Program-made: the position numbers and the translations under genes
The notes under the pieces: generated by a model
Told to the model about the DNA's origin: nothing
The model's input: only the letters and a program-made list of their open reading frames with translations
The model's database searches: none
Shown: one piece after another, positions 28,750-31,984 of the stretch
How positions within the stretch are numbered: position 1 is the first letter of the stretch
How the letters are laid out: each line of letters begins with the position of its first letter
Source: Methanobacteriota archaeon
Lineage (GTDB): Archaea; Thermoplasmatota; E2; DHVEG-1
Direction: 5' to 3'
DNA: 64,000 nt
Assembly (NCBI GenBank): GCA_963769885.1
Contig: CAVYNH010000007.1
Coordinates: forward strand, 480,001-544,000

Positions 28750-28877
28750 GCAGGGGTAGCCAAGCCTGGCCAACGGCGCAGGACTTAAGATCACAAGGGC
28801 TGAAACACAGCGGAAGGTTCGTTGGATGAGACATCCTGTCTCGCAGGAGTCCGAGGGTTCAAATCCCTTCCCCTGCA
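28750..28877 (+). tRNA. tRNA-Leu(TAA) with a 43-nt canonical 37/38 intron (28790..28832)
   Basis: Acceptor GCAGGGG/CCCCTGC+A; anticodon TAA at 28786-28788; BHB motif (CTTA/TGAG helix, AGA and ACA bulges); long variable arm. Confidence 0.93.
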
Positions 28878-28943
28878 CTCTTTCTTCCACAAGATAATTA
28901 TTAATACATGAAACAAGATTTATTGTTAGAGGGAGGAAGTAAA

Positions 28944-29813
28944 GTGCAGGAAAAACACAAAATCTTTGCAATACTTGCTACAACACTACTTCTCACAGTA
29001 TCGTGTTTGCCAACAATCTCTATGGCAACCCAAAACCACTCATCGGTCCAAGTGACCACTGAGGTATACGGTTTACAAAATGATAAACCGAAGACCGTCT
29101 CACTCACCGACGAACAATACCAGCAGTTCGAAGAGTACTGCACCAGCTTCCATACAAGACTCACACAGGCAACAACCCAAAAGGAAGTCACGCTCCTCTT
29201 CAAAGAAGCGGTCGGCGTCCTCCATAGCTACGACCTCCTCCCCGCAGGTATGACCCTCCCTCAGGCACAACGCATGGTTGAACGCCTTGCGCAAATCTCA
29301 CAACGACTAAACACTCGAGCAAACACCTACTACTCACAGACCGGCAACCACATCTGCCTCATTGCGGGGCACACCACGCAAACATGGTTTACCTCACCCC
29401 TTTATGCCTCCCTGTTAGTCCTCTTGTGGCTCATCCAAAAACACGACACTCTCGTCTTCCTCCTCTTTACCGCTATGATGATGGATGACCTCGTCGATCA
29501 ATTCATTCCCCTAGCTCCTTTCGATGCTATTAGTTTCGGTGAAGCATGGATGGATGGTTGGGAAGGACAATGGCACGACGCCTATTCCGAAGGCTGGGTC
29601 CATACCTTCGGATTTGGCGGCGCTCACGACTGGAACGGAACATTCAAAGGAGCGCTCACAATCGACATCCCCGGAGGCAGCCACCTCTACTCTGATCTCT
29701 ACCCAGGAGCCACCGGTTTTATCGGTATTAAAACCGAATCCCTGTACCGATCCTCCTTTTACCTCGGTCTTGCTCTCAACGTCCAACTTAACAATGTCAA
29801 TACTACACGCTGA
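28944..29813 (+). CDS. Secreted hypothetical protein (cassette 1 cargo)
   Basis: GGAGG RBS then GTG; signal peptide; N.ICLIAG.T, GWVHTFG..G...WNG.F.G and GF.GIK...FYLG motifs. Confidence 0.7.
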   Translation: MQEKHKIFAILATTLLLTVSCLPTISMATQNHSSVQVTTEVYGLQNDKPKTVSLTDEQYQQFEEYCTSFHTRLTQATTQKEVTLLFKEAVGVLHSYDLLPAGMTLPQAQRMVERLAQISQRLNTRANTYYSQTGNHICLIAGHTTQTWFTSPLYASLLVLLWLIQKHDTLVFLLFTAMMMDDLVDQFIPLAPFDAISFGEAWMDGWEGQWHDAYSEGWVHTFGFGGAHDWNGTFKGALTIDIPGGSHLYSDLYPGATGFIGIKTESLYRSSFYLGLALNVQLNNVNTTR

Positions 29814-29862
29814 AATCACAAAAAAAAACATGGCCTGTATTATTAACCTTACTTAGTTGATT

Positions 29863-29918
29863 GTCAATATTTGACGTACCGGTAAACTGGGGTTCAAATC
29901 CCTTCCCCTGCACTCTTT
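29863..29918 (+). repeat. att-like junction 1: 27-nt arm plus 29-bp perfect copy of the tRNA-Leu 3' end
   Basis: GTCAATATTTGACGTACCGGTAAACTG|GGGTTCAAATCCCTTCCCCTGCACTCTTT; the right part is identical to 28855..28883. Confidence 0.92.
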
Positions 29919-29981
29919 TTTACCTGAAAAAGGTTTAAATAACCAAGGGTAATCTATTTGCATATAGAGGGCGGGAAAGCA

Positions 29982-31127
29982 ATGATTGGAAATCCTATTG
30001 TTAGGAAACATTTGGCGGTTGGAATCATTCTCTTGTTTGTTGGGGCTTGTGTCGTTCCAGTGATTGCACAAGATCCTGAAAAACCACTACCGACATCAAG
30101 AGGCGATTGGGTATATGTTGGTGGGAGTGGACCTGGGAACTACTCAAAGATTCAGGATGCGATCAATAATTCTTCAAGTGGAGGCACCATTTACGTCTTT
30201 CATGGTACCTATCATGAGGCAATCACGATCACTGTTTGGAATCTGACGATAATCGGAGAAGGTAGAGACGTTACAATCATTGATGAGAACTGGACCGATG
30301 CCGCGGTGGTGATCGAAAAAAGTTGCGTGAGCCTCCGTGGGTTCACCATCACAGGGAAGAAGGACGGTATTTATGTTCATGGGGAATTAACCACCATAAC
30401 GGTTTCTGACAATAATTTTACACAAAATTACTGTGGCGTTGAGTTTCAATACGATTGGGATAACTATGATAATGTCATAGAGAACAATATTTTTTATTCA
30501 AATCACTGTGGGATTTATTTCGTAAGCGATCTCTGGTTCAATACCATTAGAAACAACTCATTCATCAATAATTTTGATGGTATGGAAATCAGTGGAAACA
30601 ATATCAGAGTACTGAATAACACATTTCTGAATTGTCAGGGGAGTGGCATTTCCCTTTATGGCGGACCATCGATGGTTGAAGGTAATATTTTTACTAAAAA
30701 TAACATGGGAGTATCTGGTGGTGGTCTGGAACAAACAATTTCTGGAAATCTATTTATTGAAAATGATATCGGTCTGAATCTTGGTGGCTCAGGACATACT
30801 ATCACTGGAAATGTCTTTGAGAATAATTCACTTGGCGTGAGAGTATCTGGTTCCAATACAAAGGTGAATCAAAACAATTTCATACAGAACGGCAAACACG
30901 CACAGTTTGCTGAAGAAAACCGATCGAATGGGAATAACTGGGACAACAATTATTGGAGCGATTCATTCCACTTTTTTGGTTACAAGTGCATTTTTGGGAA
31001 GATGCACACAAAAATACCAAGGCTTTTACAATTTGATCCATTCAGTACTACCTATTTTTGGATTGGATGGATCAACTTCGACAGGCATCCCGCACAAGAA
31101 CCCTATAGTATTCCAGAAATGAATTGA
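29982..31127 (+). CDS. Secreted right-handed beta-helix (NosD/CASH-like) protein (cassette 2 cargo)
   Basis: YVGGSGPGNYSKIQDAI, repeated I.NN.F..N..GI turns, N.WDNNYWSD, C-terminal FDRHPAQEPY. Confidence 0.85.
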   Translation: MIGNPIVRKHLAVGIILLFVGACVVPVIAQDPEKPLPTSRGDWVYVGGSGPGNYSKIQDAINNSSSGGTIYVFHGTYHEAITITVWNLTIIGEGRDVTIIDENWTDAAVVIEKSCVSLRGFTITGKKDGIYVHGELTTITVSDNNFTQNYCGVEFQYDWDNYDNVIENNIFYSNHCGIYFVSDLWFNTIRNNSFINNFDGMEISGNNIRVLNNTFLNCQGSGISLYGGPSMVEGNIFTKNNMGVSGGGLEQTISGNLFIENDIGLNLGGSGHTITGNVFENNSLGVRVSGSNTKVNQNNFIQNGKHAQFAEENRSNGNNWDNNYWSDSFHFFGYKCIFGKMHTKIPRLLQFDPFSTTYFWIGWINFDRHPAQEPYSIPEMN

Positions 31128-31140
31128 TTGATACTCATCC

Positions 31141-31185
31141 GTCAATCATCGTCGTGCCGTTAAACCAGGGTTCAAATCCCTTCCC
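31141..31185 (+). repeat. att-like junction 2
   Basis: GTCAATCATCGTCGTGCCGTTAAACCA|GGGTTCAAATCCCTTCCC, followed by a T-tract. Confidence 0.85.
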
Positions 31186-31237
31186 TCTCATTTTTTTCCT
31201 GCGATGCATCCTGAGAACAGAAAACTTTAAATATGAA

Positions 31238-31286
31238 ATGTTATATATACATAACATATTGTTATAGATAAATAATAAAATGTTAT
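31238..31286 (+). promoter_or_regulatory. Probable operator array for the downstream HTH regulator
   Basis: ATGTTAT-N6-ATAACAT palindrome; TGTTAT half-sites at 31239, 31260 and 31281 (21-bp spacing), just after TTTAAATA. Confidence 0.6.
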
Positions 31287-31317
31287 CACCAACACACATT
31301 GAAAAGAGGTGAAATGC

Positions 31318-31722
31318 ATGAAAGAAAAATTAGAAATGATCACGGGGCTGATAATAGTAATTGTCGTGTTCCTGACACTTCTCATCTATGCCATGAACAT
31401 CGGAATATTAGATATGGAAAAATTTGGATTATTTGTCATCGCCATTCTGCTAGTGTCGGCAGTCCTCTACATCCTCTGGGATCGAGCAAAAAACGTAAGA
31501 AAAGGACTGCCAGCGAAGGACGAACGGCTAATAAATATCACCTACAAGGCTGGACATAACGGATTTATCGCAGCAACACTCAGCAGCGTTTTCGCCCCAG
31601 TGCTCTCAAGCATTCTCCTCAATCGAGAACTCGAGGGCCACCATGTGACCAGCATCGTGGTTCTTGTTTCAGGCTTTGTCTTCATTGTATCATATTTGCT
31701 TCTGGCGAGGAGAGGGAAGTAG
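31318..31722 (+). CDS. DUF2178-like membrane protein (cassette 3 cargo)
   Basis: Four TM segments; KDER...I..KAG motif; GAGGTG RBS. Confidence 0.75.
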   Translation: MKEKLEMITGLIIVIVVFLTLLIYAMNIGILDMEKFGLFVIAILLVSAVLYILWDRAKNVRKGLPAKDERLINITYKAGHNGFIAATLSSVFAPVLSSILLNRELEGHHVTSIVVLVSGFVFIVSYLLLARRGK

Positions 31723-31725
31723 CCT

Positions 31726-31923
31726 ATGAAAACACGCATCAAGGAACTCCGGGCGCGATACGATCTCACCCAAGAGGACCTTGCGAAGAAAGTAGGAGTC
31801 CGACGAGAAACAATCCTCTTCATAGAGAAGGGAAACTACAATCCCTCACTCCAACTAGCCCACGATATCGCACAAGCCTTGCAGACAACCATCGATGACT
31901 TGTTTCTATTTGACGATAAATAA
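31726..31923 (+). CDS. XRE/Cro-family HTH transcriptional regulator (cassette 3 cargo)
   Basis: MKTRIKELR...[26 protein letters not shown]. Confidence 0.92.
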
Positions 31924-31936
31924 GAGAAGCGCCATC

Positions 31937-31984
31937 GTCACCTCTTGTCATGCTGAAAATCTGGGGGTCAAATCCTTTTCCTTG
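31937..31984 (+). repeat. att-like junction 3 (degenerate)
   Basis: GTCACCTCTTGTCATGCTGAAAATCTG|GGGGTCAAATCCTTTTCCTTG; 17/21 identical to the tRNA 3' end; the arm aligns ungapped with junctions 1 and 2. Confidence 0.7.

Follow-up and report, generated by a model that had tools for sequence, protein, structure and literature searches.

How do short stretches of DNA that carry one or two genes and no integrase come to be stacked behind a tRNA gene? The question is raised by a stretch of 64,000 nucleotides (the window) of contig CAVYNH010000007.1, assembly GCA_963769885.1, from an archaeon of an uncultured sediment lineage. Its genome measures 2.09 Mb and is 92% complete, and the family includes the metagenome-assembled genome M9B1D of the Thermoprofundales/MBG-D (PMC6461988). 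A repeat search of the window finds the 3' end of the tRNA-Leu(TAA) gene in four in-register copies, spaced by 1035, 1278 and 796 bp, and so confirms the three units that an earlier reading of the letters (the sequence-only reading) had delimited. The identities to the tRNA that it had given for the three further copies, 29/29 (at 29890), 19 bp exact (at 31167) and 17/21 (at 31964), are correct. It had taken the array for an integron-like system of small non-autonomous cassettes, inserted by a recombinase acting in trans and with the newest nearest the tRNA. We find that the units are part of a real, mobile, family-wide system, that this system is not an integron, and that a recombinase supplied from outside the units, as then proposed, is supported.

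Movement of the units

Comparison with related loci indicates that the units are mobile as units, gained and lost between relatives exactly at the boundary repeats; in this respect the proposal of small, mobile, non-autonomous units holds. Unit 1 recurs end to end (window 28858-29890) outside this genome: GCA_035543435.1 and two contigs from metagenomes (L331-L333) match it at 90% identity over 1034 bp. The relocated unit lies at a non-tRNA site, behind the right end of a different unit, and its similarity to the window begins in the acceptor strand and extends up to, but not into, the T-loop in a right core that is eroded. Of the other two units, unit 2 has a left end homologous to a unit of genome G016 from 3-5 nt past the core, and unit 3 is absent from a wetland contig (one sample, runs X2 and X3), which joins 31183 to 31980 and skips exactly this unit, 796 bp. 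The joint is in register inside the repeat, with a short side of 80 letters and a flank that is about 96% identical; the contig comes from a related strain, and to the left of the joint its sequence resembles the right end of unit 2 and probably stems from a paralog of that unit.

At the orthologous locus of relatives, identical gene order free of breakpoints at the repeats was checked for and is not what was found. Two loci, L107 and L108, are 93% identical rightwards from exactly the repeat and unrelated leftwards. L108 holds one different unit, while L106 (flank 88% identical) and a genome of the same genus hold other genes. A nitroreductase unit that stands behind tRNA-Leu(CAA) in the present genome is 95% identical to one at the TAA locus of the same-genus genome, where the flank is 83% identical, and a lipoprotein unit of about 1324-1372 bp occurs in four places in three genomes.

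A back-joint from 31133 to 29905 was not taken as a sign of a circle: the X2 record, at 1448 bp, is longer than unit 2, and tandem paralogous units fit better. Unit 1 is uncovered in X2 and X3 and covered alone in run X7; there is no joining contig, and this pattern was not used as evidence.

End signal and probable exchange point

The three non-tRNA copies in the window have an upstream arm in common, a feature that had not been described before and that emerged from the repeat search. In the wider set of non-tRNA copies, a 12-bp palindrome with the consensus TTTACNNGTAAA is separated by exactly 5 nt from the core, or T-loop, that follows it in 49 of 113; no other offset accounts for more than four. 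The palindrome marks the right end of 46 of 71 units. At left ends, which show a T-tract, it is not enriched (11 of 71 units, background 0-10). Measured against the consensus, junction 1 of the window has two mismatches and junction 2 has four; junction 3 is eroded. The first sites of orphan arrays, which have no tRNA, are often like the tRNA side (six of 24, compared with one of 59 internal sites; p = 0.002, a value overstated by the relatedness of the genomes), as expected of secondary target sites.

Strand exchange probably takes place between the last base of the T-loop and the acceptor strand. With an exchange at or 3' of the last T-loop base, the T-arm would stay with the tRNA, and in each copy the portion that corresponds to the T-loop would belong to the left-hand unit. 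Exchange inside the T-loop was rejected because the attR sites of the helper element introduced below differ from the tRNA across the first seven core positions; it is also contradicted by L310 and L077, in both of which the T-stem of the distal copy is unable to pair with the anchor tRNA.

Two further sequence features were seen at the junctions. The CAGGAGAAA motif precedes many cores by 35-36 nt and follows some by 13-19 nt, much more often than its frequency in the genome would predict; its correlation within units or across junctions is not significant. A second type of right end, with a broken T-loop and an intact acceptor strand, travels with the left-hand unit (L040 near 8770; L061:1735; L064:2811; L332:3720-3752) and may mark another helper lineage.

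The candidate helper element

In two relatives an integrase gene lies directly behind tRNA-Leu. Its product belongs to a tyrosine recombinase family of about 315 amino acids with intact catalytic residues, and the gene is preceded and overlapped by one for a putative DNA-binding partner of about 180 amino acids. This two-gene operon stands right behind the tRNA in an integrative element of 9-22 kb, the helper. At its attL, 4 nt separate the tRNA end from the same palindrome, and a TATA box comes next; the palindrome is present at 48 of the 55 tRNAs of integrase loci. Complete elements also have it 5 nt before the attR core, and in seven of them attR departs from the tRNA only at core positions 0-6 (the first seven of 21). 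One complete tRNA-Leu helper, in genome G061, is 17.6 kb long and is followed by an integrase-free unit of 1157 bp. Another, in G087, is 9.4 kb long, with an MCM helicase, a resolvase and potassium-transporter cargo, and the arm of its attR has an upstream motif in common with the arms in the window. The helper replicates (MCM); conjugation genes were not seen in the helpers examined.

In a structural model of the partner, with a predicted local distance difference test score (pLDDT) of 82, a conserved hydrophobic stretch is followed by two N-terminal helices, a long coil and, at the C-terminus, a winged helix. Pfam gives only weak matches to a ribbon-helix-helix N-terminus, and a Foldseek search gave weak winged-helix matches and none at E <= 0.001. 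The partner may be the protein that binds the palindromes. The integrase family ranges over Thermoplasmatota, Methanothrix, Bathyarchaeia, Nitrososphaera and viral contigs, mostly at Leu, Ser and Glu tRNAs. Within the host family the helper is rare, being present in 17 of 107 genomes.

Proposed ride-along in cis and other explanations

Given the mobility of the units, their common right-end signal and the anatomy and rarity of the helper, we propose, at what we judge to be an even chance, that the units are miniature accretion cassettes mobilised in cis, which a passing helper takes up and later releases. A unit would begin with a T-tract, carry one or two genes that have a promoter of their own and close with the equivalent of attR (the TTTACNNGTAAA palindrome, 5 nt and the tRNA-Leu 3' end), and the helper, not the unit, would supply the recombinase. 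Once integrated at the end of the tRNA, ahead of the stacked units, the helper could excise using the attR of the unit downstream, carry that unit off and integrate with it at another tRNA-Leu or look-alike site. A later excision by the helper's own attR would leave the unit behind, and repeated visits would build the stacks. The units probably originate as the terminal gene and attR of helper islands. An origin as the eroded end of a large island, which the sequence-only reading had held to be fatal to its proposal, is then no refutation; it is probably how the units arose, with mobility retained afterwards.

Several observations weigh against transport in cis. Neither this genome, at its 92% completeness, nor the same-genus relative yielded a member of the helper family. 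No block of two adjacent units was seen to be shared between loci, as cis transport would sometimes produce. Within the window only junction 1 has a good palindrome, and the palindrome patterns were partly picked from the same data. Right ends also come in several other types, and the helpers involved may therefore belong to more than one lineage. Homologs of unit 3 occur elsewhere with no flanking cores, and cargo genes therefore live outside cassettes too. The palindrome of attL may be either needed or merely the operator of the operon, and recombination itself is deduced from sequence, none having been observed.

The same helper integrase might instead act in trans, with the right-end palindrome sufficient, on single-unit circles of 0.3-3 kb formed between neighbouring cores and inserted at any tRNA-Leu end. 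We hold this to be possible, if doubtful. It agrees with the conserved right ends and free left ends, with single units beside different neighbours, with the exact loss of a distal unit in the wetland contig and with 73-bp empty units that consist of arm and core only; the attL palindrome abuts the TATA box and may be just an operator. No circle was seen, however, and in every complete helper palindromes flank the core on both sides, which suggests that both are used. The crossing of a non-replicating circle between species would also be left unexplained, whereas the helper replicates. If this route were the right one, the system would be an analogue of an integron without IntI, in which a transient archaeal pair of integrase and partner served free-circle, single-gene cassettes from a family-wide shared pool, a picture that we offer tentatively. 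The cis ride-along and free-circle routes both fit the comparisons made here. Action in trans, as asserted by the sequence-only reading, is not supported in that form: the left ends of the units lack the attL palindrome and are equally compatible with cis transport.

A resident host or island recombinase of another family would be a different source of the activity, for example the two near-identical Xer-like enzymes of 331-340 amino acids or the tRNA integrases of 414-450 amino acids. There are eight tyrosine recombinase matches in the genome, and around many cores CAGGAGAAA occupies positions -35/-36 and +13 to +19; it is also found behind tRNA-Arg beside a 450-amino-acid integrase. None of these enzymes is encoded next to the 3' end of a tRNA-Leu gene, the palindrome is missing from the tRNAs that do stand beside them, and genome G017 has arrays and no scored integrase match, which makes this source quite improbable. 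That the units are immobile, eroded ends of large integrase-bearing islands inserted one after another is very improbable and largely refuted. Their right ends do equal the attR of the helper, helper islands do end in ordinary cargo and attR, and tandem decay is established (PMC5704250), but units with the same two ends and the same length stand at different loci and in different species and are more similar than the genomes around them; independent erosion would not give such end-to-end homologs. Homologous or microhomology recombination between the 15-29-bp copies of the tRNA end, with no site-specific enzyme, is the least probable explanation of all. Deletion between direct repeats would also yield the in-register wetland joint, but would explain neither the initial insertions nor the palindrome at a fixed distance that the copies have in common with the integrase elements.

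Extent in the genome and the family

The arrays are not confined to the window. Searched with the 23-nt core, the genome gives 43 matches at up to six mismatches and 29 at up to five, and the reversed genome four and zero, an excess that excludes chance. Core copies in the same genome also follow tRNA-Leu(CAA), (GAG) and (CAG) and tRNA-Ser(GCT), and further ones form orphan arrays that have no tRNA. From 60-odd fetched loci, 74 units were delimited, with a median length of 935 bp; 47 hold a single open reading frame (ORF). The longest ORF is on the strand of the tRNA in 35 units and on the opposite strand in 25, so that the same-strand cargo described for the window is correct there and does not extend to units at large. 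The supposed rule that the newest unit lies nearest the tRNA fares worse: among eight tRNA-anchored arrays with at least two copies, the number of mismatches rises with distance in four, falls in two and is flat or irregular in two. The polarity of the window array is thus not a rule, and the case for an age polarity of arrays is weak.

The palindrome, 5 nt and the Leu core together occur in 72 of 107 genomes of the family and, among 89 further genomes of the class, in one, while the controls gave no match; these figures bound Leu-type sites only, as tRNA-Leu ends may differ in other families. Sites like att but of Ser and Arg type obey the same palindrome-plus-5-nt rule (G000 C4:358574, C4:343058 and C1:46066). 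The Arg-type site is found 3.7 kb behind tRNA-Pro(CGG), and tRNA-Ser(GCT) is followed by Leu-type sites, so that targets may be mixed across tRNA types. Empty mini-units of 44-83 bp, which contain the tRNA end, the arm and a second core and no gene, were seen at L354:2250-2343, G000 C6:2865-2911 and G000 C4:138523-138606.

Relation to known systems

Going by the principal features described for integrons, archaeal ones included (10.1101/2022.02.06.479319), the resemblance lies in arrays of single-gene modules, each with one recombination signal at its right end, and in rapid turnover between relatives. Here IntI, the attC hairpin and a resident integrase are lacking, gene orientation is mixed, the genes have putative promoters of their own and the target is a tRNA end. 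The best TIGR02249 score is 45.8 bits in the genome and 40.9 for the helper, against a cut-off of 265, and when the three junctions are folded as single-stranded DNA, z values between -1.5 and +0.7 give no sign of an attC hairpin. With no IntI, no attC, no integrase gene resident beside the array and no general co-orientation of the cargo, the system is not an integron, contrary to the sequence-only reading. A casposon was rejected as well, there being no Cas1-like casposase (no PF01867 match in the genome) and no terminal inverted repeats.

The closest known systems are the ssrA islands of Dehalococcoides (PMC3146451) and accretion of cis-mobilisable elements (CIMEs) with integrative and conjugative or integrative and mobilisable elements (PMC5704250). 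The ssrA islands stand in tandem behind a tRNA-like gene, and each is bounded by a repeat of about 20 bp from the 3' end of that gene, closely preceded by a conserved motif; exchange takes place in or near the T-loop, the integration module lies beside attL, and 15 islands without the module have been proposed to be cis-mobilisable (PMC3146451). The present system resembles them in these features, the position of exchange and mobilisation in cis being probable or proposed here. The ssrA islands use a serine recombinase and one target gene and hold several genes, whereas here there are a tyrosine integrase, four tRNA-Leu genes plus orphan sites, a median unit of 935 bp with one gene and a helper that is usually absent. 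CIMEs lack integration and transfer genes, are stacked at the end of a target gene and are moved with an adjacent autonomous element (PMC5704250). In the units, too, no integration or transfer genes were found, they stand in tandem at the target-gene end bounded by att cores, and their attR is related to that of the autonomous element; an arrangement in tandem with such an element was found in the relative G061 and not in this genome. CIMEs keep attL and attR (PMC5704250), whereas the units keep only the accessory site on the attR side, are smaller and far more numerous, and are archaeal. Because the attL arm is not retained, the system is not counted as a member of the CIMEs.

SNJ2-type systems (PMC5861418) also have tRNA targets and an integrase operon with overlapping accessory genes for coiled-coil and winged-helix proteins. 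The helper differs in that it has one fused partner, sits at attL and occurs outside Halobacteria, and non-autonomous cassettes are not described for SNJ2 (PMC5861418). The published SNJ2 signature, with substitutions of Glu/Asp to Gly/Ala and of His/Trp to Ala/Val (PMC5861418), sets the helper apart from the SNJ2 integrase: in alignment A1, most rows keep the Glu after the first Arg, and LRGD before the Tyr. By this signature, an assignment of the helper to the SNJ2 type was rejected; SNJ2 itself did not turn up in the phage collection searched. The additive flexible genomic islands of Alteromonas (PMC3698932) are alike in that variable numbers of cassettes are added at a tRNA and differ between close strains; the category is a descriptive one, however, its cassettes are larger, and their ends carry no defined signal (PMC3698932).

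A literature search, incomplete in coverage, found no paper on the present system. New here are the end-to-end mobility of the window units, their one-armed anatomy, the complete tRNA-Leu helpers and the probable exchange window; the surprise is limited by the fact that tandem accretion itself is already known. Through this system an abundant sediment lineage that has not been cultured gains and loses genes, and island finders based on integrases overlook such units. The analysis points to two enzymes as a candidate pair, to a 12-bp signal and to a probable window of exchange, and the integrase, which is compact and directed at tRNA ends in several archaeal phyla, could serve as a genetic tool.

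Architecture and cargo of the locus

The features of the locus are listed in Table 1. The cargo is as previously read from the letters, namely an orphan with a signal-like N-terminus, a NosD/beta-helix protein, and a DUF2178-like protein with an HTH_3 regulator. The product of unit 1 has five paralogs in the genome and no match in Pfam or NCBIfam. The beta-helix protein belongs to a large paralog expansion (about 35 tblastn matches in the genome), and some of its paralogs adjoin core copies. The units are AT-rich, with a GC content of 0.37-0.51 compared with 0.55-0.64 in the flanks. T-tracts and TATA-like boxes follow the copies, as read by sequence only; a promoter and terminator scan of the sigma-70 type, unsuited to archaea, remained at chance level.

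Table 1. Features of the tRNA-Leu(TAA) array and its surroundings (window positions). BRE, transcription factor B recognition element.
Feature	Position	Strand	Remarks
tRNA-Gly(TCC)	28669..28745	+	ARAGORN; directly 5' of the anchor tRNA
tRNA-Leu(TAA), 43-nt intron 28790-28832	28750..28878	+	ARAGORN with introns; anchor and target site
Core 0, T-arm and acceptor 3' strand of the tRNA	28855..28877	+	inferred exchange point about 28864 to 28874
Unit 1, interior	28878..29889	+	ORF 28908/28944-29813, orphan protein
Junction 1, attR-type	29863..29912	+	arm motif 29863; palindrome 29875-29886; 5 nt; core copy 1 29890-29912
Unit 2, interior	29913..31167	+	ORF 29982-31127, NosD/right-handed beta-helix protein
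BRE/TATA-like box in unit 2	near 29927-29942		read from sequence
Junction 2	31141..31190	+	arm; degenerate palindrome 31153-31164; core copy 2 31168-31190
Unit 3, interior	31191..31963	+	DUF2178-like membrane protein 31318-31722; HTH_3 regulator 31726-31923
Junction 3	31937..31986	+	eroded arm; core copy 3 31964-31986; array end
Right flank, 239-aa gene and CDF transporter	32061..33658	.	marker for finding orthologous loci

The three units contain no integrase or integrase remnant, in agreement with the sequence-only reading, and there is no recombinase within 26001-35000 of the window. A single integrase match of 36 amino acids (E 0.03) falls within an upstream aminotransferase gene, outside the units. 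The repeat search found no inverted repeats at the unit ends.

Just upstream of the tRNA pair lies a basic ORF of 61 amino acids (28071-28256, minus strand) with no Pfam match. An integrase gene 5' of tRNA-Gly in the relatives G008 and G025, which has an integron-like look, was set aside; it also stands before tRNA-Gly where there is no Leu array. In two relatives, a small ORF and the gene of a tyrosine recombinase of about 330 amino acids end directly 5' of tRNA-Gly (L046:8330-9662 and L047:7183-8506), and the host's own two closely similar recombinases of 331-340 amino acids (L001 and L002) are 26-28% related to this enzyme.

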